From Chloroflexota bacterium (GTDB lineage: Bacteria; Chloroflexota; Chloroflexia; QHBQ01): a DNA stretch of 61,356 nt. The notes under the pieces were generated by a model. That model was given only the letters and a program-made list of their open reading frames with translations. It was not told the origin of the DNA and searched no databases. Shown here one piece after another: positions 1 through 24,689 of the stretch (positions are counted from its first letter, which is position 1; each line of letters starts with the position of its first letter). Location: the NCBI GenBank assembly GCA_043754535.1, contig JAYUUN010000010.1, forward strand, positions 1 to 61,356, given 5' to 3'. The position numbers and the translations under genes were made by a program.

Positions 1-1713
1 GTGATCAAGCAGACGAAGGCCCAGTTTGTTTACTCTGCTGATAGTGTCTCCAATCAGGGCTACTTGCTCGGCTACTTCGAGATCGTGGCGAATGACCACA
101 CTCTGGCTGATCGGTTCCCTGGCCTGCTAGAGCAGGTGACACCAGCGGATGTGCAGCGCGTGGCTGGGCAATACCTGAAGAAGAGTAACCGCACTGTCGG
201 CCACTTTACCCCCCGCCCGATGACCGACGAAGATCACCGCAAGATGGCAGTGGCCCAGGCAGCGGCAGCGGGGGGTCACGGTCACTTCTACACCCCGATC
301 AGCGACCTGGTAGCGACCGATAGGCTGGCTTTCTACCATCAACCCACAGCCGCGAGCTTGTTCCTGGCTAAAGACCCTCAGGAACTTGTGTTCCTAAACC
401 CACAGGCGGCAACCGCGCAGGAACAGGCGTTGGCGCGATTGGATGATGACAAGATCGTGCGTAAGGTGTTGCCAAATGGCATTACCGCTTTGATCTACAC
501 CAAGAAGGACAACCCTTCGGTTATCGTGCGGGCGGCTCTGCGTGCTGGCTCAATCTACGAAACCCCAGAGCAGGCTGGGCTGGCGGGCTTCACCTCTTCA
601 ATCCTGCGGCGGGGGACGGAGCAATATGGCTTTAGCGAACTGAACGAACTAACCGACGAGCTAGCCTTTAGTGTGGAGAGCGGTAGTAGCCGTCACCTTG
701 CTAGTGTCGGGGGCCGCAGTCTGCGTGAAGACTTCGGCACACTGGTAGAGGTGATAGGCGAGATGTTGCAGCACGCTACCTTTCCTGAGCAGGAGATCGA
801 GAAGGTACGAGGCAACGTACTGACTGGCCTTAAGGAGCGCGAGAACGACACTCGGGGCGTGGCTGAGCGCAAGTTCCACGAACTAGCCTACCCTGAGGGC
901 CACCCCTACCACTACTCTAGCTCTGGCTATATCGAGACAATCGAGAAGATTAGTCGCGAAGATATGGTGGCCTTCTACAAGAGATACTATCGGCCCGACA
1001 CCACTACCATCGTAATCGTCGGTGACATTGAGGCTGCTGACGCACTAGCGAAGTTGCAGGCCGAGCTTGGTGGCTGGCAGCCAGAGCCTGGCGCAGGCGA
1101 GGCACCCATCATTGAAGTGGCTGCGGTAAGTAAGCCAGAGGGTATCAGGCGGGAGGTGAGCGAGGTGCCGGGCAAGACACAGGCCGACATCGTTCTCGGC
1201 TTTCCTAGCTTGCCACGCAAGCACCCCGACTACGAGGCGTTGATGATGGGCAACTACATCCTCGGCCAGCTTGGTCTCTACGGTCGCCTCGGTCAGAATG
1301 TACGTGACAAGCAGGGACTGGCCTACTACTGCTACAGCAGTCTTGAGGGCGGCTTCGGCAATGGCTCGTGGGCCATCCGCGCAGGTGTAAACCCAGCCAA
1401 CATCGACAAGGCAATTGCGGGTATGTTGGAGGAGACGAACCGCATCCTAACCGATGCTCCTATTGAAGCAGAGGAGTTGGAGGAGACCAAGAGCTTCCTC
1501 ACTGGTACCCTACCCCTGCGGCTGGAGACCAGCAGTGGGATCGCAGCCCAATTGATGGACATCGAACTCTATGAACTGGGTAGCGACTACGTACAACGGC
1601 ACCTTCAGAAGGTACAGGCTATGACCGCTGAGGAGATCATGGCCGCCTTGCACAAGCACATCAATCTCGACAGCTATGTACTCGCCATTGCTGGTACGCT
1701 AGCCAACGAATAG
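1..1713 (+). CDS. M16 (pitrilysin-family) zinc peptidase, 5'-truncated; end of first half fused to a non-catalytic second half
   Basis: M16-type motifs VRKVLPNG, GSIYETPEQAGLA, FYKRYYRPD, GRLGQNVRDKQGLAY; no HxxEH in the visible half; ORF runs off the window start. Confidence 0.85.
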   Translation: MIKQTKAQFVYSADSVSNQGYLLGYFEIVANDHTLADRFPGLLEQVTPADVQRVAGQYLKKSNRTVGHFTPRPMTDEDHRKMAVAQAAAAGGHGHFYTPISDLVATDRLAFYHQPTAASLFLAKDPQELVFLNPQAATAQEQALARLDDDKIVRKVLPNGITALIYTKKDNPSVIVRAALRAGSIYETPEQAGLAGFTSSILRRGTEQYGFSELNELTDELAFSVESGSSRHLASVGGRSLREDFGTLVEVIGEMLQHATFPEQEIEKVRGNVLTGLKERENDTRGVAERKFHELAYPEGHPYHYSSSGYIETIEKISREDMVAFYKRYYRPDTTTIVIVGDIEAADALAKLQAELGGWQPEPGAGEAPIIEVAAVSKPEGIRREVSEVPGKTQADIVLGFPSLPRKHPDYEALMMGNYILGQLGLYGRLGQNVRDKQGLAYYCYSSLEGGFGNGSWAIRAGVNPANIDKAIAGMLEETNRILTDAPIEAEELEETKSFLTGTLPLRLETSSGIAAQLMDIELYELGSDYVQRHLQKVQAMTAEEIMAALHKHINLDSYVLAIAGTLANE

Positions 1714-1726
1714 CAAACAGCGCAGC

Positions 1727-1763
1727 AAGAGGGTGGATCAGATGAACGCTGATCCACCCTCTT
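1727..1763. terminator. Intrinsic terminator-like hairpin after the M16 gene
   Basis: Perfect 15-bp inverted repeat AAGAGGGTGGATCAG / CTGATCCACCCTCTT with a 7-nt loop. Confidence 0.75.
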
Positions 1764-1767
1764 TGCG

Positions 1768-1787
1768 TTAGGAACTTATGCTCCTAA
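1768..1787. repeat. 20-bp imperfect palindrome, copy 1 (candidate parS-like site)
   Basis: TTAGGAACTTATGCTCCTAA; near-identical copies at 1815-1834 and 7639-7658. Confidence 0.6.
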
Positions 1788-1814
1788 ACTACATAGCACT
1801 GCGCCAACCAACCT

Positions 1815-1834
1815 TTAGGAACTCATGCTCCTAA
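1815..1834. repeat. 20-bp imperfect palindrome, copy 2 (candidate parS-like site)
   Basis: TTAGGAACTCATGCTCCTAA. Confidence 0.6.
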
Positions 1835-1945
1835 ACCCTGTGCAGCGCACCCACAGCGGCGATCCGCCCTCTTACTAGCACACCAACAGACTCACACGCC
1901 GAGAGCGCATCCACGTGCGCCCCCAATCAGCATATTCGTCTGTGC

Positions 1946-2341
1946 TTACAGTTCCGTCTGCACTGGCCGCAGCTTCCCCTGCTTGTAGGCCGTCTGCAGC
2001 TCTAGCAGGTCGCGTAGCTTGTCGCGCAGGCGGCGGCTGAACTCCTCCTCATCATACAGTCGCTCCAGCAGCAGCTTGCCGAAGTCAGGGTCGTTCAGCA
2101 GTTCCAACATCATCTCGCCACACACGCGCAGGTAGGTTGAGCGATTGACCTTCAATCCATCGTATGCCCGCGTCTTGCTGTTCAGCTTCGCTAGCTGCTC
2201 ATCCAGTGGGATTAGCTGATAGGGGTAGTAGTAAACTGCCACCTGCTTTAGCCGTCCGGCCCCGTTGCGCGCCCGTTGCTCGGCCATATCGTCCTCCACC
2301 TCGCGGCGGCTGCGCGGTGGGTTGTCAAAGTCGAAATCCAT
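1946..2341 (-). CDS. Small hypothetical protein, possible ribbon-helix-helix DNA-binding protein
   Basis: 131-aa ORF with RBS (GAGGAGAG); strand-helix-helix pattern QVAVYY-PYQLIPLDEQLAKL-NRSTYLRVCGEMMLE. Confidence 0.55.
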   Translation of the reverse strand: MDFDFDNPPRSRREVEDDMAEQRARNGAGRLKQVAVYYYPYQLIPLDEQLAKLNSKTRAYDGLKVNRSTYLRVCGEMMLELLNDPDFGKLLLERLYDEEEFSRRLRDKLRDLLELQTAYKQGKLRPVQTEL

Positions 2342-2397
2342 CTCACTCTCCTCTTGCTAACCCCACCTTTGCTCAGCGTGGGGCTAATGGCTAGCGG

Positions 2398-3264
2398 CTA
2401 CGCCCGACCTTTGTACTCCTGCATCATCGTACCCACCACGTGTTCTACGATGTCAGTGTCAACTTTCCGCTTGTTGAAGCGCGGAGCTACGTCGAAGCAG
2501 AGTGAGCAGATGTTGACGATGCTGCGCGGCACCCCTTCTGACTGCTTAAAAATCATCGCTATCGCGTCGTCGGTGAACAGCTCTATACCTGGCGGCAAGC
2601 CTGCTACCTTCAGCCGGTGGTAGATCAAGTCCTTCACCTGCGCCGCGCTCATAAATGGCTCAAGGTTGTTGGTGAAGCGTACTCGACTGCCAAGATTACG
2701 CTTCTTCGCCACCTTCTCTTGCAGCTCAAGCTGGCCGAACATCACAATTTGCAAGATGCGGTGGTCGTCAAGCGAGTAGTTGAGAAAGATACGTAGTCGC
2801 TCTAGCGCGTCGTAGGTCAGGCACTGAGCCTCGTCAACCAGCAGCAGCGGCACCTTCCCCTCACGGGCTGTCTTTTGCAGAAAGATGATGAACTCGTTAG
2901 ACAGCTCGCTGCGGGTGCTGGCGACAGGCCGCTGACCAAAGGCACGCAGCATCTCGCGGGTAAACTCCGCGTCGGTCGGCTGCGAAGGGTCAAGTACCTC
3001 ACCTACCAGGAAGCTGCTGAACAGGTCGTTGCCCACGATCCGCTTACGCAGCAGCCCCAGTAGGCTACTCTTGCCCAGCCCAATGTCACCGTAGATGATC
3101 GCCAAACCGCGCTTCATCGCGATGTGGCTAGTCAGCATCTCGTAAGCCTCTTTGTACTGGTAGCCCAGATAGAAGAAACGTGCGCTATCCTCTGGGTTGA
3201 AAGGGTCTTCCTTCAGCGCGGGGTGGAAGTAGGCCATCGCCAACTTCTGGTACTGACTAACCAT
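2398..3264 (-). CDS. ExeA/GspA/MshM-like AAA ATPase, stand-alone
   Basis: LKEDPF..ARFFY N-terminus, Walker A GDIGLGKS, Walker B LLLVDEAQ, IVMFGQLEL, SEGVPRSIVNIC. Confidence 0.85.
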   Translation of the reverse strand: MVSQYQKLAMAYFHPALKEDPFNPEDSARFFYLGYQYKEAYEMLTSHIAMKRGLAIIYGDIGLGKSSLLGLLRKRIVGNDLFSSFLVGEVLDPSQPTDAEFTREMLRAFGQRPVASTRSELSNEFIIFLQKTAREGKVPLLLVDEAQCLTYDALERLRIFLNYSLDDHRILQIVMFGQLELQEKVAKKRNLGSRVRFTNNLEPFMSAAQVKDLIYHRLKVAGLPPGIELFTDDAIAMIFKQSEGVPRSIVNICSLCFDVAPRFNKRKVDTDIVEHVVGTMMQEYKGRA

Positions 3265-3294
3265 TGTTGTCTCCTGTCGCAGCCATCATTCTAC

Positions 3295-3338
3295 CTTACA
3301 GCAATGTCAATCTTACAGCAATGTCAATCTTACAGCAA
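3295..3338. repeat. 17-bp tandem direct repeat (about 2.6 copies)
   Basis: CTTACAGCAATGTCAAT x2 followed by CTTACAGCAA. Confidence 0.9.
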
Positions 3339-3355
3339 AACCCCAATGCTGTCAA
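3327..3355 (-). promoter_or_regulatory. Sigma70-type promoter for the AAA ATPase/RHH pair
   Basis: Minus strand TTGACA (3355-3350), 17 bp, TAAGAT (3332-3327). Confidence 0.55.
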
Positions 3356-3433
3356 TAGGCTGAAGCCGTGATGTTGCCCGTGCTAACGTACTAATATGCC
3401 AGCATCATGGGGTGCAGTCAGAGTAGCACCGAT

Positions 3434-3461
3434 TTGACAGCATTTTAGTTTCGGGTATAAT
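3434..3461 (+). promoter_or_regulatory. Sigma70-type promoter for the HTH-parA-parB operon
   Basis: TTGACA, 16 bp, TATAAT (both hexamers consensus). Confidence 0.75.
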
Positions 3462-3539
3462 AAGCGATAGGCAACCTTAGAATAGCTTCTTCGGCACAGA
3501 CTACTGCGCCAGCACCAAAATGTGAGGTCGGTTTAAGCA

Positions 3540-3893
3540 ATGGCAAGTTCTATCGGATACAGCAGCGGTGAGGCTTTGGGGGTGTTGGCCGACCGTGGCT
3601 ACATCACCACCCCCCGTGTGATCCGCAACATTGAGGACAAGCTAGCTCTGCCCATCCGCCGTGATGCCCAGCATCAGCGCGTCTACACCGAGGTGGACAT
3701 CGAGCAACTAGCCAACGTGATTGCCCTCCAAGAGGCTGGCCTCAGCCTGCCTACCATCTACCGCGTGTTGATCGAGCGCGATATTGACGTGCTGACCTTC
3801 CAGAGCCAACGGCTGGATCACGCCATGAGCATCCTCCAGAGCTTGAAGCAGACCGCCAGCAACGCCCAGGCCGTTGGCGCAGAGAGGCAGTAG
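3540..3893 (+). CDS. MerR-type HTH protein (RacA/BldC-like)
   Basis: PRVIRNIEDKLALPIRRDAQHQRVYTEVDIEQL..QEAGLSLPTI fits the MerR winged-HTH pattern; short helical C-terminus. Confidence 0.7.
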   Translation: MASSIGYSSGEALGVLADRGYITTPRVIRNIEDKLALPIRRDAQHQRVYTEVDIEQLANVIALQEAGLSLPTIYRVLIERDIDVLTFQSQRLDHAMSILQSLKQTASNAQAVGAERQ

Positions 3894-3898
3894 CGTCT

Positions 3899-4810
3899 AT
3901 GTATCTCTCTATGAACACCCGCCAGCGCGTGGAGGAAGCCAGCCACAAGGCTGCCCCTCAGCGCAAGCAACAGAAAGCCGCGCCGAAGGGGCTTGCTACC
4001 GAACCCAAGATGCAACCGCTTGAGGATGAGCAGGCCGACCACTGCCGTGTGATCGCCATCGCTAACCAGAAGGGTGGCGTAGGTAAGACCACTACCACCG
4101 TCAACCTCGGTGCCGAACTTGCCGTCCTCGGTCGCCGCGTCCTCGTCATCGACCTCGATCCCCAGGCCGCCGCCACCTACTCGCTCGGTGCCGACCCAGA
4201 GACGTTGGACAACACGATCTACAGCGTGCTGGTCAAGAAAAGCGTCAAGCTAAACGACATCTTGCTGCCCACCGCCATCGAGGGGCTGCTACTCGCCCCT
4301 GCCAACCTCGACCTTGCCGCCGCCGAGATGGAGTTGATGCAGAACTACACCCGCGAACGCATCCTCCGCGATGCAATCGCCCCCTTCCGCAACCAGTTCG
4401 ACTACATCCTGATCGACTGCCCGCCCACCCTGACCCTGCTCACGATCAACGCCTTCGTCGCCAGCACCGAGGTACTGATCCCCTTGCAGACCCATCTGCT
4501 CAGTATCCGTGGGGTCAGCAAGCTGTTGGAGACGATCAAGGAAGTGACCCCGCTCAACCCCGGTCTGCGCGTTGCCGGTATCCTGCCCACCATGTACGAT
4601 GGCCGCAGCAACCTCAACCGCGAGATACTTGCCACCATCAGCGAAGTCTACCCTGGTCGCGTCTTCAAGAGCGTGATCCGCTACGGCGTGGCCGCTGCCG
4701 AAGCCCCAGGCCAGGGCGTGCCAGTACGCCTCTACGCCCGCAGTTCGCCCGTCGCCCAGTGCTACGAGAGCCTTGCGAAGGAGGTTGTCGCTGATGAGTA
4801 CACCCAGTAA
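3899..4810 (+). CDS. parA: ParA/Soj-family partition ATPase
   Basis: Deviant Walker A NQKGGVGKTTT, IDLDPQ, DYILIDCPP; start may be ATG 3911. Confidence 0.95.
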   Translation: MYLSMNTRQRVEEASHKAAPQRKQQKAAPKGLATEPKMQPLEDEQADHCRVIAIANQKGGVGKTTTTVNLGAELAVLGRRVLVIDLDPQAAATYSLGADPETLDNTIYSVLVKKSVKLNDILLPTAIEGLLLAPANLDLAAAEMELMQNYTRERILRDAIAPFRNQFDYILIDCPPTLTLLTINAFVASTEVLIPLQTHLLSIRGVSKLLETIKEVTPLNPGLRVAGILPTMYDGRSNLNREILATISEVYPGRVFKSVIRYGVAAAEAPGQGVPVRLYARSSPVAQCYESLAKEVVADEYTQ

Positions 4811-5774
4811 GAAGCGCAGCCTTGTTCCCAACAATATCGTGCAACGGCTGGTAGACGCTACCCCAGAGGAGGGTTCGCAGCCACTAGCCAACGCCCGCCT
4901 GCTGGACATGAAGCTGATCGACAACGACCCCAACCAGCCACGCAAAGTCTTTGAGGTTGAGCCATTCCGTGAACTGGTCAACTCCCTCGCCCTGCGCGGT
5001 CTTTTGCAACCGATTACCGTGCAGCGGCAAAAGAGCGGTCGCTATCGGGTGATCACCGGCGAACGTCGCTGGCGGGCCGCTGTCGAACTTGGCTGGATGC
5101 AAATCCCCGCCCTCGTCGTCGATACCAACAAAGACGAGATGGACATCAAGCTGGATCGCATCGAGGAGAACCGCCAGCGCACTGGCCTCAAAGACTACGA
5201 AATGGCCCTCGCTCTGCAAGAGATCAAGCGCGACCTGCGTGAGGTCAACCCCGACGTGAACAGCAACGAGCTTGACGACATGGTGGGTGAGAAGCTGACC
5301 ATCAGCGGGCGCACAGTGCGTAACTATCTAGCCATGCTCAAGCTACCCGACGAGGTGCGTGCCGAACTGGGCCAGGACTTCAGCGAACTGCGCGCTCGCG
5401 GCCTCAGCCTGCTCAAGAACCAGCCCGACCTCATGTTTGACCTGGTGCAGGCCGTCAATCGCCACAACCTCAGCGGCAACCAGACCGTGCAGGCCGCCCG
5501 CTTGCTCGACCGCGACGCGACCCTCACTGTCACCGAAGCGGTAGCTCGCGTCCGCAAGGGCGAGAGCGTGGAGAACTCAGTCACCCCGAAGGTCAAGAGT
5601 GCCAGGCGAGCTAGTACCCGCTTCCGTCAGTTCGCCACGGACCTCAACAACATAGGCCGCGCTCTTGAAGGCGGCCAGGTAATCCCCACCAGTGCCGAGG
5701 AACGCGACGACCTCCGCCGCCTGCTCATCCCTATCGTCGAGTTCTACCAGCGGTTGGAGAAGGAGGGCAAGTGA
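4794..5774 (+). CDS. parB: ParB/Spo0J-family partition protein
   Basis: NQPRKVF, GLLQPITV, ITGERRWRA CTP-binding motif, EENRQR, central HTH; RBS AAGGAGG before ATG 4794; overlaps the parA end. Confidence 0.92.
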   Translation: MSTPSKKRSLVPNNIVQRLVDATPEEGSQPLANARLLDMKLIDNDPNQPRKVFEVEPFRELVNSLALRGLLQPITVQRQKSGRYRVITGERRWRAAVELGWMQIPALVVDTNKDEMDIKLDRIEENRQRTGLKDYEMALALQEIKRDLREVNPDVNSNELDDMVGEKLTISGRTVRNYLAMLKLPDEVRAELGQDFSELRARGLSLLKNQPDLMFDLVQAVNRHNLSGNQTVQAARLLDRDATLTVTEAVARVRKGESVENSVTPKVKSARRASTRFRQFATDLNNIGRALEGGQVIPTSAEERDDLRRLLIPIVEFYQRLEKEGK

Positions 5775-6256
5775 TGGCCGAGGCAGAACGCAAGGTCAAG
5801 CCTAAAAGGTGGAGCAAAGCTGTGGTCAAGCTGCTGGACGGCAGCAACCGCTTGCTCTACAAGCTAACTGGCGGTAAGCTTGGCAACAGCATTGGTGGGA
5901 TGCCCGTCCTGATGCTCACTACTATTGGTCGCAGGTCGGGTGCGACCCACACGCACGCCCTCATCTTCCTGCGCGACGGCCAGGATTACGTAGTAATCGC
6001 CTCTAACGGCGGTAGCACCAGGCACCCAGGCTGGTACTTCAACGTCCAGGACAGACCCCACGTGGAGATCGAGTATAAGGGCAAGAAGGAGTCTCGCCAT
6101 GCGCACATCGCTAGCCTGGACGAGCGCACCCGCCTCTGGACTCGCGTCCTCAAGATGTGGAGCGGCTACGCAAGCTACGAGGCCGCCACCCTCAACATCC
6201 GCGAAATCCCGCTCGTCATCCTTGCCCCAGAGGAGGTAACTAGCAGTGGCAACTAG
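5774..6256 (+). CDS. Deazaflavin (F420)-dependent nitroreductase-family (DDN) oxidoreductase
   Basis: LMLTTIGRRSG, VIASNGG...HPGWYFN, REIPLVIL. Confidence 0.88.
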   Translation: MAEAERKVKPKRWSKAVVKLLDGSNRLLYKLTGGKLGNSIGGMPVLMLTTIGRRSGATHTHALIFLRDGQDYVVIASNGGSTRHPGWYFNVQDRPHVEIEYKGKKESRHAHIASLDERTRLWTRVLKMWSGYASYEAATLNIREIPLVILAPEEVTSSGN

Positions 6257-6707
6257 CCAGACGCAACCGAAACCCGTCAATCGGCTGCTAGGCAAGCTGG
6301 TGGACAGCATCCATCGGCTCGTCTGGCGAGTTAGCGGCGGCAGCGTGGGCAGCAAGCTGGGCAAGTACCCGATCCTGCTACTCACCACCACTGGGCGCAA
6401 GTCGGGCCAGCCCCGCACCCACACGCTTGCCTACTTCCGCGACAGCGACCGCCTGCTAGTAATCGCCTCCAATGGCGGTCAGCCCCAGCAGCCCGGCTGG
6501 TACCTCAACCTGCTAGCCAACCCCCAGGTGACGGTAGAAATGCAGGGTGGCAAACGCACAATGCTTGCCCATACTGCCGATGTAGCAGCACGCGCCCGCC
6601 TCTGGCCCCAGATCGTCGCCACCGCGCCACAGTACGCGGGCTACCAGGCCGCCACCGCTGGCATCCGTCACATCCCGATCATCATCCTTGTAGCGGAGGA
6701 GAGCTGA
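6246..6707 (+). CDS. Deazaflavin (F420)-dependent nitroreductase-family (DDN) oxidoreductase, paralog
   Basis: LLLTTTGRKSGQPR, VIASNGG...PGWYLNLLANP, RHIPIIIL. Confidence 0.88.
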   Translation: MATSQTQPKPVNRLLGKLVDSIHRLVWRVSGGSVGSKLGKYPILLLTTTGRKSGQPRTHTLAYFRDSDRLLVIASNGGQPQQPGWYLNLLANPQVTVEMQGGKRTMLAHTADVAARARLWPQIVATAPQYAGYQAATAGIRHIPIIILVAEES

Positions 6708-7213
6708 TGAAACTGGTGCTGCCTACAGCCGAATACAAGGCCAGCCTGCTAGCCGCCGCCGCTGAACACGAGGCTGCTGGTGAAACCCTGGACTACACCA
6801 TGCTGCCCACCTTCGATGACTTCGATGCGGGGCTACTTCGCCTGCAAGACCATGCTGCTGGTCGCAACCTTGAGCCAGGCTGGGTGGCCGACACCACCTA
6901 CTGGCTAGTAGACGACGGCGAGTACATTGGGCGCATCTCTGTACGCCATCAGTTGAATGATAGACTACGGCAGGTCGGCGGCCACATTGGCTACAACATC
7001 CGCCCCAGCAAGCGCAGGCAAGGCTATGGCGGCCACATCCTGCGCCTCGTCCTGCCAGAGGCCAAGCAGCTAGGCATCAACCCCACGCTAGTCACTTGCA
7101 ACGACGACAACATCGCCTCGTGGAAGATAATCGAGGCCAACGGCGGCAAGCTAGAGAACAAGATAGAGCTAGACGGTAGGCTAATCCGCCACTACTGGGT
7201 GGAGACCGCATGA
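6707..7213 (+). CDS. GNAT-family N-acetyltransferase
   Basis: GGHIGYNIRPSKRRQGYG, TCNDDNIASWKIIEANGG. Confidence 0.85.
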   Translation: MKLVLPTAEYKASLLAAAAEHEAAGETLDYTMLPTFDDFDAGLLRLQDHAAGRNLEPGWVADTTYWLVDDGEYIGRISVRHQLNDRLRQVGGHIGYNIRPSKRRQGYGGHILRLVLPEAKQLGINPTLVTCNDDNIASWKIIEANGGKLENKIELDGRLIRHYWVETA

Positions 7214-7377
7214 GCGACCGACCAGCAGCCGACCAGGTGGAGGCCATGCCACCGGGAGGCCGCTGAGAGGGCGCAGGCGGGACGTAGAGGCGTTAGCATG
7301 GGGAGTGGAACAAACCCCACACACCCCACATCCATCACCACATACATGAGGGGGGCAGGTAATGACCTGATGCAAGG

Positions 7378-7418
7378 CAAAAAGAAACGAGAGTACAGGG
7401 GCCATCCGTACTCTCGTC
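7378..7418 (-). terminator. Intrinsic terminator (minus strand)
   Basis: Stem ACGAGAGTAC/GTACTCTCGT followed on the minus strand by TTCTTTTT. Confidence 0.7.
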
Positions 7419-7550
7419 TAGGCTGATTAAACTGTCGAAGCCACTATCCCAGGCTATGAGAGGGCAGAGGATAAGTGGACTTGCTTACCTTTACGATATT
7501 GCTACCGGCAAGGTGGAGGCACCCGTTTGCCTTTCAGAACCTCACTTATG
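7378..7550 (-). ncRNA. Candidate ~170-nt structured non-coding RNA upstream of, and opposite in direction to, the putative initiator gene
   Basis: Minus-strand promoter (7556-7584), several hairpins, U-tailed terminator at about 7378-7418, no long ORF. Confidence 0.45.
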
Positions 7551-7555
7551 TCTAT

Positions 7556-7584
7556 ATGATACAGCAGGTGGGCGTGTTTGTCAA
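7556..7584 (-). promoter_or_regulatory. Sigma70-type promoter of the candidate ncRNA
   Basis: Minus strand TTGACA (7584-7579), 17 bp, TATCAT (7561-7556). Confidence 0.6.
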
Positions 7585-7638
7585 GTACCCTGCCGGGGCC
7601 AACTTTGCATAATGTGCGGATTCACCGCCTTTTTCGGC

Positions 7639-7658
7639 TTAGGAACTCAAGCTCCTAA
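7639..7658. repeat. 20-bp imperfect palindrome, copy 3 (candidate parS-like site)
   Basis: TTAGGAACTCAAGCTCCTAA. Confidence 0.6.
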
Positions 7659-7721
7659 GCGACAAGTGGGCAGAAACGACAGGTTTCCTGCTACAAAAGC
7701 TGGATAACCTGGCACAAAGTC

Positions 7722-7750
7722 TTGACGGCGAACAGGAGTTCTGCTATAAT
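7722..7750 (+). promoter_or_regulatory. Promoter of the putative initiator with a LexA-type box (GAAC-N4-GTTC) in the spacer
   Basis: TTGACG, 17 bp, TGC-TATAAT; CGAACAGGAGTTCT at 7729-7742. Confidence 0.65.
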
Positions 7751-7803
7751 GCGAATCAGCAGCACACTTGAACGTTTGCAAGGCAGAAAAAGCGAGGCAG
7801 AAT

Positions 7804-9552
7804 ATGGCTGACCCTAACCTGAACCAACCCGACGCAGCCCACGCCTGGGGCGAACTGCCCCTCAGCCTCGTGCGCGAGTGGACCCCCCTGCTCAAGCCAA
7901 CGGGCAGTGGCCTGCTACTCACCATCCATGCCTGGGAGGACACCAATCCTCGCTCCCCCTTCTACGGCTGGATGCACGCCTCCCAGGAACGGCTAGCCGC
8001 CTACTGCGACACTGGCCGCACCACTATCATCCGCTACCGCGACCTGCTCAAGCTCTGCGGCCTAATCGAGGAGCGACAGGTCAGTGACCGCCGCAGCCGC
8101 ATGAAGCTACACCAGAACGTCTACCGCGTCAATCGCGCCCCTGTGCTACCCAGCCACGGCCTGCTAGAGTATCTCCTATTTGACGCTGACGAGTGGACAC
8201 GCAAGCACACCGCCTGGCTGCTTACCACCTACCAACCGCTGGTCGAGGAGAGCGAGCTAGGCCGCCTGCTAGCCGCCATGCGCCGCAGCTACGAGACTCA
8301 GCTAACCAGCAGTGGGACGCTGGAGGTCGTCAGCGGCAAGCGGCTCAGCGAGGCGCACAGCTTCGCCGCCCGCTTGCTCGGCCAGCAACTCGGTCAGCAA
8401 GCCACCCTGCCGGTCGCTATCTGGCAGGCAGCCGCTCCCCTGCAAGGGGTGGCCCCTGCTGCCGACAACACCGCCCTCGCTAGCCATCCCCAGCCGACCA
8501 TTGTTTCAGCAGTGGACAGTGCTACTTTCGTAGCCGCTGGCTATGCCCATGCCAGCCACATCAGTGTGCCACCAGTGAACAATGCCGTCCCTTCCTACCG
8601 CCCCACCGCCAGCAGCGATGTGCCACCAGGAGTCAGTGGCCCCGGCAGTGCTGTTTCACCAGGAGTCAGTAATAACGTTAACGTTGATTCAGTCTTTAAC
8701 GTAAAAGATCATAATAACGTTAACGTTGCAAGTGACCACACCAACCTGCTAGCAATCGCCACCAGCGGCGCACAACAAATCAGCGACGAACACAGCCTCA
8801 ACTGGCACCTGGTCTGTGCCACCCGCCTCGGCGTGCCACTCTACCAGCAACTCGTCAGCAGCACCCGCAAGGCACTGGATGCGGGCAAGGTCAAGCGTGG
8901 TGGAGCCTACTTCACGAAGGCAGCCCTCGCTGCTGCCAGCCAACGCGGCCTCGCCCTTGAGTCTGCTGCTAGCAAGAGTCCTGGCAATGGCAATTCACAA
9001 ACTGACCCGGCTGGGGTATTGCAAAATGCCCCACAGTCGTGGTATGATACAAATCACAGGGCGACTCATCCCCCGCCAGCGAGCAGCGATGTATCAGCAG
9101 TGAACAATGCCAGCAGCGGGTTTGTGTCCAACTTCAGCGGTTACCAGGACAGCGTACCAGCCACACACAGCACGGTAGCAAGCAGCAATGTGCCACAAGT
9201 GAACAATGCTATACAGAGCGGCCCACACCTGCTCCAACCCAGCAATGTGCCACAAGTGAACAATGCTATTGACACCCTGCCCGGCCTCGACGAGACTAGC
9301 AGCGCAACGGCACGGCAACTGTGGTGCGCCGTACAGTACGAGATGCAAGGCCGCCTGAGCAATACCGCCTGGCAAAGCTGGCTGTCGCAGACCCGCGTCG
9401 TTGGTAGAGAAGACGGCACCCTGCTGATTGGCGGCCCTAGTAGCAACATGGCACGAGCGATGGTGGATCGCTATGGCGAAGAAGTAGTCACCGTCGCCCA
9501 TGAGATGGCGGGTCGCAAGCTCCCGATCCGCTTCGTCGCCCGCCTGACCTGA
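7804..9552 (+). CDS. Putative replication initiator: N-terminal winged HTH, central helical domain, C-terminal DnaA domain-I-like region
   Basis: SQERLAAYCDTGRTTIIRYRDLLKLCGLIE (wHTH); KVKRGGAYFT; QLWCAVQYEMQGRLSNTAWQSWLSQT..LLIGGPS (DnaA_N-like); lies near parAB. Confidence 0.7.
   Translation: MADPNLNQPDAAHAWGELPLSLVREWTPLLKPTGSGLLLTIHAWEDTNPRSPFYGWMHASQERLAAYCDTGRTTIIRYRDLLKLCGLIEERQVSDRRSRMKLHQNVYRVNRAPVLPSHGLLEYLLFDADEWTRKHTAWLLTTYQPLVEESELGRLLAAMRRSYETQLTSSGTLEVVSGKRLSEAHSFAARLLGQQLGQQATLPVAIWQAAAPLQGVAPAADNTALASHPQPTIVSAVDSATFVAAGYAHASHISVPPVNNAVPSYRPTASSDVPPGVSGPGSAVSPGVSNNVNVDSVFNVKDHNNVNVASDHTNLLAIATSGAQQISDEHSLNWHLVCATRLGVPLYQQLVSSTRKALDAGKVKRGGAYFTKAALAAASQRGLALESAASKSPGNGNSQTDPAGVLQNAPQSWYDTNHRATHPPPASSDVSAVNNASSGFVSNFSGYQDSVPATHSTVASSNVPQVNNAIQSGPHLLQPSNVPQVNNAIDTLPGLDETSSATARQLWCAVQYEMQGRLSNTAWQSWLSQTRVVGREDGTLLIGGPSSNMARAMVDRYGEEVVTVAHEMAGRKLPIRFVARLT
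8502..9266 (+). repeat. Seven degenerate 21-bp iteron-like repeats inside the initiator gene
   Basis: Starts at 8502, 8565, 8619, 8652, 9090, 9189, 9246; e.g. TGTGCCACAAGTGAACAATGC, TGTATCAGCAGTGAACAATGC, TGTTTCACCAGGAGTCAGTAA. Confidence 0.65.
8670..8728. other. AT-rich segment with two AACGTTAACGTT palindromes (candidate DNA-unwinding element)
   Basis: TAATAACGTTAACGTTG occurs twice, directly after repeat 4, in otherwise GC-rich DNA. Confidence 0.5.
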
Positions 9553-9659
9553 AGTGGTAGCACCCGGCCTCTCCCCTGCGAGAGGATGGGTTGGGCAGGA
9601 AGTGAGCAGCGCGACGGCCATAGCCTAGCCGCCAAAGGTAGCACTGTGCCACTAAGATT

Positions 9660-9941
9660 CTAAAATAGCCTGGGGAAGAAGCGGTAGAGCAAGCCGCCCA
9701 ACAGCAGCAGCAGCGTAGCAGCAAGCAGGCTGGCGAAATCCAGCCCCGGCGTACCAACATAGGGAGCGGCAAAGAACGGCTGGCACGGCGCGGCCACCAG
9801 TCCGCCCGCGGCCAGCAGCCAGCCAACCAGCGGGCTAGTGGGGTCAGACCCCACCGCCCGCAACACAAAGCGGCAGACCAGCAGCGCAAGCAGCACGGTC
9901 AACAACAAGCGCAGCGGCGCGATGCGGAAGGTACGTATCAT
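9660..9941 (-). CDS. Small membrane protein, YggT-like
   Basis: LLVCRFVLRAVGSDPTSPLVGWL..PFF..LDFASLLA pattern; ATG 9941 lies 7 nt after TGTGCTATAAT. Confidence 0.6.
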   Translation of the reverse strand: MIRTFRIAPLRLLLTVLLALLVCRFVLRAVGSDPTSPLVGWLLAAGGLVAAPCQPFFAAPYVGTPGLDFASLLAATLLLLLGGLLYRFFPRLF

Positions 9942-10283
9942 TGCCGCATTATAGCACATCTGCCACCCCGGTCGGGCCATGACCCGGGCAGCAGCCAACA
10001 AGCAGCAATACAGCCCCCGTAGTAGGCCATGACTACGCGGCTGGTGAGGTAGAACGCTGGAAGGGCAGCAGGAGAGGCTATGAGCATGACACTTGAAGAC
10101 CGCGTGCGGGTCGCCGCCATACGCGACGGCTGGCAACTAGATCGGGTTAGCTACCACAAGAGCAGGCTACCGTTGCGCCCAGACAGCGTAGCCGAAGAAG
10201 GTATCCTCCTGCTCCTGCTAGCCCTCAACCGCGAGCTAACCGCCCGCGAGAGCAGGCAGCTAGTGGCACTGCGCCTGGTGCGC

Positions 10284-10541
10284 TTACCGCCGCCGCTGAC
10301 CGCCGCGCAGGAACGCCCCTACTACAATGCCAACGAACAGCCAGAAGGCGATGAACAGCACGCTGCTCAAGCCGTTGGCGATCATCAGCACCAGCAGCAC
10401 CGCCGCTACGATCAGCGCGCTGCCGACTGCCGCCGGGCGCACATACGCCCCGCGCAATGCCGCCATCTCCAACAGATAGCGGCCCAGGTAGAGGCCGCCG
10501 CCAAAGATGATCGCCGCCAGGATAATAGTTAGAATGTCCAT
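10284..10541 (-). CDS. Small hypothetical membrane protein (about 3 TM)
   Basis: Hydrophobic 85-aa ORF with RBS AAGGAGGG. Confidence 0.65.
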   Translation of the reverse strand: MDILTIILAAIIFGGGLYLGRYLLEMAALRGAYVRPAAVGSALIVAAVLLVLMIANGLSSVLFIAFWLFVGIVVGAFLRGGQRRR

Positions 10542-10676
10542 AGTTTCTCAATCCCTCCTTCTGGTTGCAGGTCTACCCTTGCGCTCGATAGCAGCCGCTT
10601 GCCGCTCAGTCGTCCCCAATCGCGCAGCAACCTGGCACAGGCCGGTGCGCTCGGCTAGCCACTAGCACAGCCAACC

Positions 10677-11570
10677 CTACTCCGAGCCGCCGTCCCCGCC
10701 GCCGCCCTCCTTGCTGATCGCCGCCAGGAAGGGCGCAATTTGCTCCTGCACCCCTGGGTCGATTTGCTGCGCCCGCGCTAGTATCGGCTCCGCCTCGTCA
10801 TAGCGGCCCAGCAGAGCCAGAGCCATACCCTCGCCTGCCATCGCCTGCGCGTTCTCTGGGTCTAGCCCTGTCGCCCGCGTGAAATCGGCCAACGCCCGCT
10901 CGTAATCGCCCTGCGCCCCGTAAGTGCGCGCCCGGTTGTAGTAAGCATCCGCGTACTGCGGGTCGAGCGCAACCGCCTGGTTGTAGTCGGCCAACGCCTC
11001 GGCTAGCTTGTTCGCCAACAGGTAGCAAGACCCCCGGTTGTTGAACGAGTCCGCGTCAGTCATCCCCAATTCGATAGCCCGCGTAAAGTCGCCCGCCGCC
11101 TGCTCAAAGTGGCCCAACTCCGCGTTACATAGCGCACGACCGTAATACGGCTGCCCCTCGCCTGGTGAGAGCGAGATGTAGGTGTCGAAGTCGGCCACCG
11201 CCTGCTGCAACTGGCCCGCCTGCATATAAGCCACCCCCCGGTTGTTGTAGGCCTTGACGAAGGTGGGGTCGAGCAAGAGAGCCTGGTTGTAATCCGCAAT
11301 TGCCAGGTTGAACTTCTCTTGCTCCGCATAGCAGATGCCCCGGTAGAGGTAAGCCTCGGTCGCCTCTGGGGTGATGTTCAGCACCGCAGTGAAGTCGGCA
11401 ATCGCCGCTGCCAGGTCGCCCACCTCGTAGTAAACAGCCCCGCGCTCAAACAGCTTCTCCGCATCCCCCGGCTGCTCGGCCAGGGCAGCATCCAGCGCGC
11501 CCAGTTGTAGAGCCAGCCGCTCCTGCTCCTCCGCCTCAAGCGGTACTGCATAGTGCTGCAAGCGATTCAT
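10677..11570 (-). CDS. Tetratricopeptide-repeat protein
   Basis: Repeated AYxNRG...A..DYNQA..LDP units. Confidence 0.9.
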   Translation of the reverse strand: MNRLQHYAVPLEAEEQERLALQLGALDAALAEQPGDAEKLFERGAVYYEVGDLAAAIADFTAVLNITPEATEAYLYRGICYAEQEKFNLAIADYNQALLLDPTFVKAYNNRGVAYMQAGQLQQAVADFDTYISLSPGEGQPYYGRALCNAELGHFEQAAGDFTRAIELGMTDADSFNNRGSCYLLANKLAEALADYNQAVALDPQYADAYYNRARTYGAQGDYERALADFTRATGLDPENAQAMAGEGMALALLGRYDEAEPILARAQQIDPGVQEQIAPFLAAISKEGGGGDGGSE

Positions 11571-11736
11571 CAGCCCTCCTCAATCCCTCTTTGCTAGGAA
11601 CGCCCAACCCACGCTCTCAAGTTGGCCGCCACTGCCCTGCACGCCAAGCGCGGTGCAAGCTCCCTACCCACGTCCGTTGAGCAGGCTGCTGCTCGCTCTC
11701 CCTCGTCGCTCGGCTCACCCAGGCAGCCCTTCTTGG

Positions 11737-12051
11737 CTAGCGATAAGGTCGGCCCCGGCCACGCCCCTTCGAGCCGCCAAACAAGTCAGCGATGAAGATG
11801 ACCACAAACGCCCCCACCGTCGCCACGATGATGCTACCGATGCCGTTGAACAGGTTGCCGCCGATGCCGAGTTGGCGGAAAAGCCAGCCGCCCACTATCG
11901 CCCCGACGATGCCCAGCACCGTGTTGCCCAGGCAGCCGTAGCCGCGCCCGCGATAGAGATTGCCCGCAATCCAGCCTGCTAGTGCGCCGACGATCAGCCA
12001 GCCCAGCCAGCTACCGTCCAGGCGGATGCCGCCCCCAATGTAGATGTCCAC
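11737..12051 (-). CDS. GlsB/YeaQ/YmgE (transglycosylase-associated) membrane protein
   Basis: WLIVGALAGWIA..GYGCLGNTVLGIVGAIVGGWLF; GTG 12051 after RBS AAGGAGG. Confidence 0.85.
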   Translation of the reverse strand: MDIYIGGGIRLDGSWLGWLIVGALAGWIAGNLYRGRGYGCLGNTVLGIVGAIVGGWLFRQLGIGGNLFNGIGSIIVATVGAFVVIFIADLFGGSKGRGRGRPYR

Positions 12052-12262
12052 TATGCCCCTCCTTGCCACTAATCTAGCTTGTGCAAGACTGTGGGCTAGA
12101 TGTTTCACTCCTCGCGGCTCGGCCTACCCTTCGCCGGGATCGCCTTCTTCGGGCGCAAATCCTGCATCCGCACCTTGCCGCACGCTGGGCAGAGCCACTT
12201 GCGGTGCTTGTGGAAGCTGCGCTTCTCCTCGACCATCGGTGTGCGACAACGCGGGCAGGTCA

Positions 12263-13246
12263 CTACGCCTCGCTGCTGCTGGGGTCGCGCATCTCGGCCA
12301 GCGCAGACAGCATCATCTGGAAGCTACCCTGCTCCACCTCACCCATCTGCGCCACCGCCCCCGCAATCTCGCCGGGGCCAACCTCGTCCACCATGTCGCC
12401 GAAGCGGGTCAGCACTGCGCCAGCAAGCTCCACATCCTGCAAGCTAGCCGCATTGCTGAAGGCCGCCGTCAACGCGCCCAGGGCCGCAGCGTGGTCGCCG
12501 CTTTGCAGCGCAGCCTCAGCCGCCGCCTGGTTCTCGGCAATATGGGCGCGAATCTCTGGCTCATGCTCCTCAATCGTGCGCTGCTGCAACATCTGCATCA
12601 CGGCGATCAACCACTGGCGGTGCTGGTCGTCAAGCTGGTTGGCGGCCTCAGCCACCTGCGCCTGATCCAGGGTTTGCAGTAGGCCGACGAAGTTCGCCAA
12701 CGCCGCCTCGCGCTCCTCATCCTGATCCAGCACAATGTAGATCACCGCCGCCTCGACGTAGCCAGCCAGGGCGTTCACCGTCTCGCCACTAGCCTCGGCC
12801 AGCTTCGCCGCCTCAAGCTGGCTGCTCGCCTGCCCCAGCATAGCAGCCTGCTGCTCTGGCGGCATATTGGCGGCGTTCATCAGTTGGCCGTCGTCCTCAT
12901 CCTCATCGTCGCTCGCGCTGTCGCCGTCCATTTGGCGCACCAGGCTGACGATCATATCCAGCATCTCGCGGTGCTGCTCGTCAAGCTCGCCGCGCACCCC
13001 CTCGAACTCGTCCTCGTCCAGGGTCTGCACAAACTGCACCAGGGTGGTCAAGGCCTCGGTCGCTCGCTCATCACGCAAGGCCAGGTAGAGGTAAGCCGCC
13101 TCGGTGTAGTTGCTGACCGCCGCTGCCTTGTCACCTGCACCCTCTGCCGCCTGCCCCGCGTCGAAAGCGGTAGCCGCCTGCGCCACGATATTCTCCTGAT
13201 CTGCCGCGCTAAGTTGCTGCTCGTCCTGCTCGTCCTGCTCGTACAC
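12263..13246 (-). CDS. Acidic helical-repeat hypothetical protein
   Basis: 327 aa, D/E/A-rich, RBS AAGGAG, three ~90-aa internal repeats. Confidence 0.7.
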   Translation of the reverse strand: MYEQDEQDEQQLSAADQENIVAQAATAFDAGQAAEGAGDKAAAVSNYTEAAYLYLALRDERATEALTTLVQFVQTLDEDEFEGVRGELDEQHREMLDMIVSLVRQMDGDSASDDEDEDDGQLMNAANMPPEQQAAMLGQASSQLEAAKLAEASGETVNALAGYVEAAVIYIVLDQDEEREAALANFVGLLQTLDQAQVAEAANQLDDQHRQWLIAVMQMLQQRTIEEHEPEIRAHIAENQAAAEAALQSGDHAAALGALTAAFSNAASLQDVELAGAVLTRFGDMVDEVGPGEIAGAVAQMGEVEQGSFQMMLSALAEMRDPSSSEA

Positions 13247-13484
13247 AGTAATCTCCTTTTGTTTTTCGCGCCTTCACCGCGCTAAGGTCGCGCAATATTT
13301 GGTGGCAATTGCAATCATACCCCATGCCCCCAGCCGCGTCAAGCATTGGCGTACTGGGCTGGCAAGGCTGATCGTGCGCCATCCACTGCCTGCGACTCAC
13401 TCCATCCGTTGCAGCAATCCATTGGCTGATAGCCGCCCCAAGCATGAACTCTCATGCAGAGCGCATGGTGGTCAGCCACCCGCC

Positions 13485-14393: not shown

Positions 14394-14452
14394 CTAATCT
14401 CCTATCCTTACCACCAACCGCTATTTTGCACCAATAATCGGCTAGCCCGCAG

Positions 14453-15391: not shown

Positions 15392-15554
15392 AGCCCATCC
15401 TCTCCGCCGCCCGTCATCCTACCTCTCACCGCACTCTGTGTGCCACCACTACTTTGCTGAGCGCGCTACCGCAACCTGCGAGGGCTTATCTGTTGCCTCA
15501 ATCCAGCGGCTGGGTTACCGTGATGCCCAAGCCTGCAAAAGCGTGGTGCAAACC

Positions 15555-15583
15555 TTGCATAAACGCTGTACAAGTGCTATAAT
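15555..15583 (+). promoter_or_regulatory. Sigma70-type promoter
   Basis: TTGCAT, 17 bp, TGC-TATAAT. Confidence 0.6.
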
Positions 15584-15611
15584 GGGCTGGTGAGAAGGAT
15601 GGTATAAAGTA

Positions 15612-16445: not shown

Positions 16446-16466
16446 GCCGCTGTCGCCACAAACAAC

Positions 16467-16497
16467 AAGGGGAGTGCTAAGCAGCACCCCCTCTTTT
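16467..16497 (+). terminator. Intrinsic terminator between convergent genes
   Basis: GGGGAGTGCT/AGCACCCCC stem followed by TCTTTT. Confidence 0.6.
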
Positions 16498-16516
16498 GCG
16501 CCCCAGCTATGCGCGC

Positions 16517-17206: not shown

Positions 17207-17228
17207 GCTCTTTCCCCTTCCAGCTAGA

Positions 17229-18074: not shown

Positions 18075-18095
18075 CTGCTTCTTTCTAGCAACTTC

Positions 18096-24678: not shown

Positions 24679-24689
24679 TTTGCCCTCCT

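Follow-up and report, generated by a model that had tools for sequence, protein, structure and literature searches.

We describe a cassette at positions 1768-9552 of a 61,356-nt stretch of DNA from a Chloroflexota bacterium. This whole stretch, hereafter called the window, is the entire contig C10 of the metagenome-assembled genome (MAG) G000, an assembly of 132 contigs and 3.87 Mb that is 88.9% complete with 0.72% estimated contamination. The cassette combines partition genes with the gene of a candidate replication initiator, and that gene carries an origin-like element within its coding sequence. Our best explanation, to which we give even chances, is that of a basic replicon of plasmid type that has a ParABS system of its own and a new initiator family and serves a large secondary replicon, that is, a chromid or second chromosome. 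The kind of system is known; what is new is the initiator family with its combination of domains, along with the accessory AAA+ pair and the origin candidate embedded in codons. In the portions of the literature accessible to our search, no published description of such a protein or cassette was found. An initial annotation of this DNA, made from the letters alone, had proposed a self-contained replication and partition cassette, and all the elements of its layout were recovered by open reading frame (ORF) calls, family scans and a consensus scan. The elements are as follows.

1768-1787 and 1815-1834: two parS-like palindromes downstream of ORF131, forming the left boundary of the cassette
1946-2341, minus strand: ORF131, a small conserved protein without family assignment
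2398-3264, minus strand: stand-alone ExeA-type AAA+ ATPase (AAA_22, Pfam 3e-17)
3265..3539: divergent promoter/operator region of 275 bp, with three 17-nt direct repeats and two opposed promoters
3540-3893, plus strand: MerR-family helix-turn-helix (HTH) protein (Pfam MerR_1), which opens the rightward operon
3899-4810, plus strand: ParA partition ATPase (AAA_31, CbiA)
4773-5774, plus strand: ParB centromere-binding protein (ParB_N, TIGR00180)
5771-7213, plus strand: cargo slot with two F420H2-dependent quinone reductases and a GNAT acetyltransferase (family scans)
7379..7584, minus strand: predicted counter-transcribed RNA of ~172 nt (7550 to 7379) with its promoter and terminator
7639..7658: third parS-like palindrome, between the promoter of the counter-transcribed RNA and that of the initiator gene (rep)
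7722..7750, plus strand: promoter-like site TTGACG-17-TATAAT ahead of the initiator gene (consensus scan)
7804-9552, plus strand: candidate initiator, 582 aa
8496..8670, plus strand: left iteron-like cluster in linker 1, with 17-mer cores at 8502 and 8565 and weaker copies at 8609-8637 and 8642-8670
8671..8740: AT-rich block, candidate unwinding element (GC 0.30-0.35), with AACGTTAACGTT at 8674 and 8716
9084..9269, plus strand: right iteron-like cluster in linker 2, with 17-mer cores at 9090, 9189 and 9246

The relatives to which the cassette was compared are draft MAGs throughout (10 related loci; no complete genome and no record named plasmid or chromosome). In what follows, f1, f2 and f3 designate families of one order, g2 is a genus that includes G037 and G038, and G000 is the source genome.

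The candidate initiator is predicted by AlphaFold, from a 13-row alignment, to consist of an extended winged-helix N-domain (residues 20-185), a helical middle domain (310-385) and a C-terminal DnaA domain I (500-580), separated by disordered linkers at 191-310 and 388-498. Profile and model comparisons agree that the C-terminal module is a genuine DnaA domain I. A profile of the family searched against the sequences of the PDB found the DnaA domain I chain 4tps_B at an E value of 1.3e-6, and 10 of its 11 matches were DnaA proteins. Foldseek matched the modelled domain to 4tps with an E value of 1.2e-4 and template modelling (TM) scores of 0.88-0.90, and superposition on the same structure with VIA covered 84 of 84 residues with a Z score of 14.4 and a root-mean-square deviation of 1.8 Å. 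The domain also cross-matches the N-termini of the relatives' own DnaA proteins, and more distant proteins of the same layout pass the Pfam cut-off for DnaA_N (P0019 with 48.9 bits, the G279 homologue with 45.5 bits). Together with the winged-helix fold, these matches bear out the HTH and DnaA_N assignments that the initial annotation had made for the protein encoded from position 7804.

As for the N-domain, a model of it alone, with a predicted local distance difference test (pLDDT) score of 83, shows an extended winged helix to which a second, alpha/beta subdomain is added. The best structural matches of the N-domain are tied at Z scores of 8-9.3 and comprise TFE/TFIIE, the N-domains of the primosome proteins DnaB and DnaD, ORC2 and a staphylococcal plasmid initiator (4pta, Z 8.5); the scores were 9.0-9.1 with 5wtn and 7.5-8.5 with 8ojj. 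A Foldseek search with this domain against the PDB gave nothing at E<=1e-3, and the PHROG family phrog_186, a 'DnaD-like helicase loader', matched at 5.8e-5 over residues 50-110 only. In the Pfam scan at E<=0.01, HTH_36 was the sole match of the 582-aa protein, with none to the models RepC (RP-C/RP-C_C), Rep_3, RctB, Phage_rep_O and DnaB_2, and NCBIfam gave no RepC, Rep_3 or RctB model, in line with the earlier proposal that the initiator is not a RepC. With tblastn, neither the 72,556 plasmid records nor the 50,697 phage records gave a match to it. The family is represented by 8 clusters in a 90% identity collection and by 39 representatives at E<=1e-3 among 1.84 billion proteins.

The gene for this protein holds internal repeats, as had been noticed at first sight: five copies of a 30-nt unit and weaker ones, which reduce to the 17-mer TGTNNCASMAGTGRACA. 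Genome-wide, this 17-mer has five sites, all on the coding strand of the initiator gene, two in linker 1 and three in linker 2. Across family members the gene holds 5-9 clustered, partly palindromic repeats, located in the DNA that codes for the two predicted disordered linkers. The 60-mer with the highest AT content in the first 20 kb (GC 0.30) is located between the left repeat cluster and the code for the middle domain. The 12-mer AACGTTAACGTT occurs twice in the genome, both times in this AT block and 42 bp apart. The block is found at the equivalent place in the window and in five relatives, thus in 6 genomes of 57-71% GC. In the window, all four Val codons of the block are GTT, a codon that accounts for 8.1% of the 272 background Val codons, and in G032, whose GC content is 71%, both Val codons are GTT against 1.0% of 195 in the background, these two being the sole GTT codons of that gene. 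Background GTT use is 1-10% across the genomes compared, and AACGTT-type codons are kept in five relatives. Since every Val residue in the block uses the rare GTT codon, the block is under selection at the level of the DNA rather than of the peptide. Genome-unique repeats and an AT-rich block that is kept for its DNA sequence argue for an origin-like element inside the initiator gene, as initially proposed.

The repeats differ between families. In f3 they are DNA palindromes of the form GTCCGC-N5-GCGGAC, with 7-9 per gene; strict genome-wide matches fall inside the gene in 5 of 9 cases in G032, 4 of 7 in G030 and 4 of 6 in G031 (3 of 5 distinct places). In g2 they read TGTTTCAC-CA-GTGAACA, and two more copies are present past the stop codon in G038 and G037. 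We considered and rejected the possibility that they are mere repeats of the peptide, because the f3 units are palindromes in the DNA, g2 copies lie beyond the stop codon and the units are family-specific. That the repeat units change between families while the parS-like palindrome does not would fit the view that the repeats are recognised by the N-domain, which evolves fast, and not by ParB. Within the g2 in-gene repeat (L021:10652-11700, L022:10584-11696), TGTTTCAC is an exact match to the left half-site of canonical parS. The gene also varies between strains: among the 40 differences listed between the window and contigs from three other studies, 22 fell within the 547 bp of 8289-8835, in linker 1 and at the beginning of the middle domain. 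Only one of the 22 (8572) hits a repeat core, and the AACGTT 12-mers are free of them.

The partition proteins are readily classified. ParA matches AAA_31 (7e-58, 196 bits) and CbiA (3e-26, 92 bits), both over the cut-offs, which identifies it as a Walker-type ParA ATPase, and it is 68-78% identical in relatives. ParB is a type I ParB by its matches to ParB_N (4e-22, 78.5 bits for a cut-off of 26.3) and TIGR00180 (103.8 bits for a cut-off of 58.45); HTH_ParB scores 20.7 bits, just under its cut-off of 22.6, and the motif GERRWRAA is visible. Neither protein qualifies as an equivalog of its repABC counterpart: the top NCBIfam match of ParA is TIGR03453 (partition_RepA), with 127.4 bits against a cut-off of 348.45, and ParB reaches 33.6 bits against 201.5 for the RepB equivalog TIGR03454.

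Three copies of one palindrome had been described as bracketing the cassette. Exact copies of TTAGGAACTYAWGCTCCTAA are indeed found at 1768, 1815 and 7639 (three seen, 0.01 expected), and these three are the only sites of the 3.87-Mb assembly even when one mismatch is allowed. A degenerate fourth palindrome, TCAGGAACTTGTGTTCCTAA, is located at 378..397 inside the gene of an M16 peptidase (1-1713, ORF call) and has two mismatches to TTAGGAAC-N4-GCTCCTAA. Among the relatives, G031, G030 and G032 likewise have palindromes downstream of their ORF131 homologue, and G038 and G037 have two copies of TCAGGAACACGTGTTCCTAA upstream of the cassette. In all 5 relatives searched, the well-formed palindromes were located within ~10 kb of the cassette; one-mismatch matches away from the cassette were few and non-palindromic in these genomes. 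It is the clustering of the palindromes that counts, not their number, because a reversed control pattern gave as many loose matches. The cross-genome consensus, TTAGGAACACGTGTTCCTAA, shares the CACGTG core of parS and has its outer pentamers in inverted orientation with respect to canonical parS.

Canonical parS sites are found elsewhere in these genomes. There are seven on C111 in G000, four perfect ones 3 kb from dnaA on C3 in G032, two beside dnaA on C37 in G031, and six in G030 on C30, a contig other than that of the cassette. Because its palindromes differ from canonical parS and cluster elsewhere, the cassette probably owns a centromere distinct from the chromosomal one. To judge from their sequence and placement, the cassette palindromes are a private parS variant and putative ParB sites.

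The 590 bp between the cargo genes and the initiator gene (7214-7803) are regarded as non-coding, because the sole ORF there (7456-7707) has a third-position GC content (GC3) of 0.39 as compared with ~0.75 in real genes. On the minus strand of this stretch, the consensus scan found a promoter, TTGACA-17-TATCAT at 7584..7556, with a strong terminator ~170 nt further on at 7419..7385. A unit made of a TTGACA-N17-TAT(C/G)AT promoter, a hairpin and a T-run is present opposite rep in eight loci, namely the window, L021 and L022 in f1, and L019, L020, L023, L013 and L015 in f3. It was not found in the scans of L007, L009 and L010, possibly on account of their short contigs. The five f3 sequences of ~185 nt are highly conserved for non-coding DNA and share a common fold with compensatory changes in 6 of 64 pairs, and the predicted 172-nt RNA of the window folds with a z score of -2.2. 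Rfam, searched at E<=1 over positions 1-12000, gave one chance-level match only and no family for the counter-transcribed RNA. In f3 the unit fills the spacer between parB and rep, so that the target of the antisense RNA would be a par-rep read-through transcript. The order parA, parB, counter-oriented RNA and initiator, in which the initial annotation had seen a logic similar to that of repABC, appears from these comparisons to be conserved in two families. Contigs of two other studies have a 9-nt deletion at window position 7314, upstream of the terminator of the RNA.

The leftward operon encodes a less familiar pair. ORF131 has no match in Pfam, NCBIfam or PHROGs, and the Atlas provided leads only, below 0.9 with a family; the gene and its orientation were as initially annotated, and the ribbon-helix-helix label attached to it is just such a lead (a MetJ cluster with a score of 0.84). 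Its homologues in f3 are 64-68% identical. The ATPase matches Pfam AAA_22 (3e-17), TIGR03015 (3e-39, under the cut-off) and phrog_296 (3e-17), it falls into 'ExeA family' clusters of the Atlas at 0.98, and it showed no meaningful sequence match to solved chains. Distant homologues give a clue to the role of the pair. In G279, which belongs to another family of the class, the genes for MerR, AAA_22, a 109-aa ORF and a 917-aa winged-helix protein with two DnaA_N domains are co-directional and not accompanied by ParAB; the AAA_22 protein there is 34% identical to that of the window (E 2e-52), and the 109-aa ORF, located between AAA_22 and the big protein, is 31% identical to ORF131 (E 3e-6). The same gene order is found on a 9-kb contig of G263, with an AAA_22 homologue that is also 34% identical. 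As they are co-directional with the initiator homologue in these two genomes and ParAB is missing there, AAA_22 and ORF131 probably belong functionally with the initiator rather than with partition.

The rightward operon opens with the MerR gene, whose product scores 37 bits with MerR_1 for a cut-off of 21.6 (Pfam 3.7e-9). This gene is present in 5 of 5 syntenic loci and also upstream of AAA_22 in G279 and G263. In the divergent region, three 17-nt direct repeats at 3290-3340 are accompanied by near-perfect sigma-70 sites for both operons, leftward at 3355..3327 and rightward at 3434-3461 (TTGACA-16-TATAAT), according to the consensus scan. The non-coding blocks TTGACATTGATGTCAA, CTGACAGCGATGTT and GATTTGACA...TATAAT are kept between f1 and f3; TTGACATTGATGTCAA is an inverted repeat, and its counterpart in the window is the set of three direct repeats.

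In the five loci fetched with 20-kb context (G030, G031, G032, G037 and G038), the genes for AAA_22, MerR, ParA, ParB and the big protein have one and the same arrangement and orientation without exception, so that the gene set is co-conserved in two families. ORF131 was detected in three of the five, those of f3. Among 40 genomes of the order, a single AAA_22 copy of high identity (>=65%) is present in 4 of 4 f1 and 8 of 9 f3 genomes and in 0 of 26 f2 genomes; without the unpublished genomes included in these counts (G002 and G003 in f2, G027 in f3), the f3 and f2 values are 7/8 and 0/24. The three g2 genomes carry an extra, 34%-identical AAA_22 paralogue elsewhere. The N-domain has strong matches in 12 genomes, i.e. 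3 of 4 in f1 plus G000, 8 of 9 in f3 and 0 of 26 in f2. In 301 genomes of the class its strong matches are limited to f1 and f3, and three weak ones bring the count to 15. Identities to G032 are 72% for ParA, 66% for the AAA+ protein, 64% for ORF131, 49% for the N-domain and 42% for ParB. These values bracket the 51.5% of DnaA, which is expected of, or compatible with, vertical descent. The cassette thus appears, as far as such comparisons can tell, to be vertically inherited in two families of a Chloroflexota order. Its flanks are conserved within each family and not between families.

A maintenance module or remnant of a horizontally acquired mobile element, such as a phage-plasmid, an integrative and conjugative element (ICE) or an integrated plasmid, seems to us highly improbable. 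The cargo slot is variable: empty in f3, it holds in g2 a P22 antirepressor-like gene (P22_AR_N) and one for a tetratricopeptide repeat (TPR) protein. The antirepressor-like gene of g2 would speak for such an element, as would the existence of several further parA/parB loci in G000. One of these is a paralogous locus on C57 (G000:C57:11463-16406; L024 covers 14000-19000), with ParB at 11463-12374, ParA at 13209-14168 on the minus strand, a Phd/YefM-like antitoxin gene at 14437-14919, and a 449-aa protein that has an N-terminal HTH, an 'NRAGFVLARL' helical domain, a DnaA_N-like C-terminus and two 22-nt linker repeats 33 bp apart. Against a mobile origin stand the single copy number, the family-specific conserved flanks and the DnaA-like divergence of the cassette, as well as the lack of any initiator match in the plasmid and phage collections. 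In addition, the family scans, which covered 53 of the 59 ORFs called in the window as well as flanks of the G032 locus, gave no integrase or transposase there and no genes for conjugation or phage structural proteins; the sole mobile-element match in any flank is a DDE-transposase fragment at the G031 locus. In all, G000 has seven parA/parB pairs (on C5, C8, C13, C57, C104, C112 and C10) and 10 ParB_N matches. The seven pairs suggest that it harbours several plasmid-type replicons or integrated modules. In the cargo slot of the window, the F420H2-dependent quinone reductase genes (5771-6707) form a tandem duplication, with DNA segments that are 74-75% identical and 466 nt apart.

The neighbours of the cassette are housekeeping-type metabolic genes, including a full nuo operon, which agrees with the core-type surroundings, devoid of a visible integrase, that had been noted before. 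As an essential-cargo marker this operon is uninformative, because G000 has a second nuo operon on C29. Three tandem paralogous genes for SAM-dependent methyltransferases are inserted in the complex I operon of the window at 23848-26380, between the nuoL-like gene and nuoK/J.

On which replicon does the cassette reside? In G000, G031 and G032, dnaA and oriC are on a contig other than that of the cassette, which proves nothing. The dnaA gene of G000 is on C54 (39349-41091), flanked by 7 and 4 DnaA boxes, with clusters of perfect boxes on both sides at 38853-39157 and 41184-41271, and no DnaA box was found at <=1 mismatch in C10:1-12000. We therefore rejected the cassette as a candidate oriC. 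The DnaA protein of G000 has a long Asn/Gly/Ser-rich domain II with 'GYRNGN' repeats. The order itself was named from one family representative, whose source is given as 'Candidatus Chloroheliales bacterium'. The closed Ca. Chlorohelix genome, according to the excerpts of PMC10972752 available, comprises two chromosomes, a chromid and two plasmids. This makes a second chromosome plausible in relatives, with the proviso that this organism may belong to f2, in which the cassette is lacking.

It is also conceivable, if rather unlikely in our estimation, that the same plasmid-derived module is resident in the main chromosome as an ancient co-integrate with a domesticated role, for instance in extra ParABS-based organisation or as a conditional or back-up origin, and that it does not set the replichores. 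The flanks are of the housekeeping type and conserved in each family. Near-identical copies with matching flanks are found in contigs of three other studies, i.e. in independent samples, with flat contig depth (which gives no ori/ter ratio), and no integrase or conjugation genes were seen in scans. The lack of a polarity switch at the cassette and its place in G032 on a 2.6-Mb contig together with the best-scoring ParB gene, both presented below, also fit chromosomal residence. Conversely, the repeats, the AT block and the counter-transcribed RNA seem to be under purifying selection in two families, which would be hard to explain for a silent origin. Furthermore, dnaA/oriC and canonical parS were never on the contig of the cassette in the genomes examined, and a member of the order is multipartite in the available text of the genome report.

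The initial annotation had named a skew signal at the cassette among its checks, and this check came out negative. As a measure of strand asymmetry, we subtracted the GC3 skew of the genes on the minus strand from that of the genes on the plus strand, a difference that separates replication-related from transcription-related skew. It flips at the oriC of G032, from +0.200 (interval 0.146 to 0.251) on the left of dnaA to -0.066 (-0.108 to -0.022) on the right. In the region around this oriC (G032:C3:62001-462000, L072-L091), the plus strand is G-rich at third positions on the left and C-rich on the right of dnaA. This is the reverse of the usual polarity, in which the leading strand is G-rich. 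The asymmetry fades or reverses ~150-200 kb away.

Several observations weigh against a basic replicon that drives a secondary chromosome or chromid. The measure that detects the oriC of G032 does not flip at the G032 cassette (-0.016 and -0.021, with both intervals spanning 0) or at that of G031 on the 225-kb contig C39 (+0.073 and +0.076, the same sign on both sides). Coarse GC skew showed no pattern in the window and no two-replichore pattern in 20 samples along the 2.6-Mb contig G032:C2. The cassette of G032 shares this 2.6-Mb contig with the best-scoring ParB gene and so is not on a small plasmid. To the right of the cassette, about 30 genes of the window, those of the nuo operon among them, are oriented towards it, so that their transcription would be head-on to any forks that leave the cassette. 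In none of the 26 f2 genomes was the cassette found. As for the initiator, the single-sequence Pfam matches are sub-threshold, with 19 bits for HTH_36 and 17.6 bits for DnaA_N, the latter with the C-terminal fragment alone and for a gathering threshold of 24.6. The AACGTT block is missing in the distant homologues of G279, G263 and G137 and in the C57 paralogue, G279 has no clear repeat arrays, and no promoter-like site comparable to that ahead of rep was seen by eye in the other loci. The asymmetry measure is nevertheless a weak witness, because its sign changes several times within 400 kb; in sliding windows, the changes nearest to the cassette are 50-75 kb away and on opposite sides in G032 and G031. 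The absence of an end-to-end overlap of the 2.6-Mb contig is uninformative on circularity.

The missing skew signal would also suit a non-replicative function, which we regard as unlikely. The cassette might be a ParABS-linked regulatory locus with autoregulatory sites inside a gene, or might tether or titrate DnaA or the helicase in the manner of datA or crtS. The N-domain is a generic winged helix common to many regulators, and DnaA domain I is a protein-interaction module, known for self-dimerisation and partner binding. Distant homologues, moreover, exist without ParAB. The third of these, in G137, has 710 aa, a winged helix and a DnaA_N domain above the Pfam cut-off (C1:599817-601949, L135:8817-10949), with four short repeats of the AGCAACAATGG type in its gene and neither ParAB nor AAA_22 adjacent; the contig that encodes it has 670 kb and is one of the four that make up a 2.93-Mb genome, in which dnaA is located on another contig, of 1.5 Mb. 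On the other side, a rare-codon AT block between two repeat clusters, a counter-transcribed RNA and a private centromere make up the signature of a basic replicon, and the nearest fold and profile matches of the N-domain include replication proteins.

Returning to the plasmid-type basic replicon, we propose the following mechanism. The N-domain would bind the in-gene repeats, as dimers where these are palindromic, and this binding would load and melt the AT-rich block between the two repeat clusters, so that the origin would lie within the initiator gene. The C-terminal DnaA-domain-I module might then recruit the replicative helicase or the protein that loads it, or else DnaA. The initiator may have the ExeA-type AAA+ ATPase and ORF131 as accessory partners, separate polypeptides that supply parts which DnaA has in one chain; the ATPase, with its small adaptor, would provide an ATP-driven step. 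By pairing with read-through par-rep transcripts, the ~170-nt counter-transcribed RNA could limit the synthesis of the initiator, as in repABC. ParB would load at the TTAGGAAC-N4-GTTCCTAA sites and ParA segregate the copies, and MerR and the repeat-rich divergent promoter region might autoregulate both operons. It is tempting to speculate further that this is a split-DnaA system, with a winged-helix/DnaA-domain-I initiator, an ExeA-type AAA+ protein with a small adaptor, an origin in the linker codons, a counter-transcribed RNA and a private ParABS, that drives a second chromosome in relatives of the Chloroheliales. We put this more specific version forward tentatively and with more doubt than belief.

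To our knowledge, the replication of secondary chromosomes or chromids is known for few phyla only, with RctB in Vibrio, repABC in Alphaproteobacteria and iteron-type Rep proteins in Burkholderia and Deinococcus. The cassette adds a concrete candidate, with a rare initiator family, candidate binding sites, a candidate unwinding element, a predicted control RNA and an orthogonal centromere. The constraint at the DNA level is unusually clean, with rare GTT codons kept in a genome of 71% GC. The reuse of DnaA domain I as the C-terminal module of a protein other than DnaA would make helicase recruitment by plasmid-type initiators directly approachable. If our reading is true, this would be the third independent case of an origin embedded in the coding sequence of its initiator.

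Compared with DnaA, the candidate initiator has a domain I in common, and a separate AAA+ ATPase is encoded alongside. However, domain I is C-terminal in it, and the protein has neither domain IV nor the AAA+ domain of DnaA (PF00308 matches elsewhere in the genome). The similarity to Bacillus DnaD and DnaB resides in the N-domain, whose best structural and PHROG neighbours include their N-terminal winged helix, whereas no DnaB_2 match accompanies it and the AAA+ protein is of the ExeA/AAA_22 type rather than a DnaA, DnaC or DnaI. In phage lambda, repeated sites and an AT-rich stretch (ori-lambda) are embedded in the linker code of the O gene, between an N-terminal winged helix and a C-terminal helicase-recruiting domain. 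The likeness is organisational only, with the cassette repeats and AT block mapping to the predicted disordered linkers of the initiator gene. The cassette protein has no similarity to Phage_rep_O, and its C-terminus is a DnaA domain I rather than a P-binding domain; its two repeat clusters occupy two linkers, and it is accompanied by partition genes and not by phage genes.

Iteron-type initiators, such as RepE, pi and RepA of the Rep_3 family or RctB with parAB2 of Vibrio cholerae, also combine a winged helix with clustered direct repeats and an AT-rich element. They are further similar in having an adjacent dedicated parAB with its own parS (putative in the cassette), and in a large replicon with housekeeping genes as the likely host. 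The cassette differs from them by the absence of Rep_3 or RctB matches and of DnaA boxes, by the location of its repeats in coding DNA and by another combination of domains.

The repABC systems serve large low-copy replicons and secondary chromosomes, and their AT-rich oriV is inside repC, with no DnaA boxes and no iterons, as described in the excerpts of PMC3155836 available. The cassette resembles them in the succession of partition ATPase, ParB, counter-transcribed RNA (predicted here) and initiator, in the AT-rich origin-like element inside the initiator gene and in the absence of DnaA boxes. It departs from them in that its initiator is unrelated to RepC and its ParA and ParB are far under the RepA and RepB equivalog cut-offs. 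Where the RepC origin is described as devoid of iterons in the same excerpts (PMC3155836), the initiator gene of the cassette has 5-9 repeats. Its RNA of ~170-185 nt has no Rfam family, and the cassette comprises a MerR gene and a divergent AAA+/small-ORF pair in addition, in hosts of another phylum.

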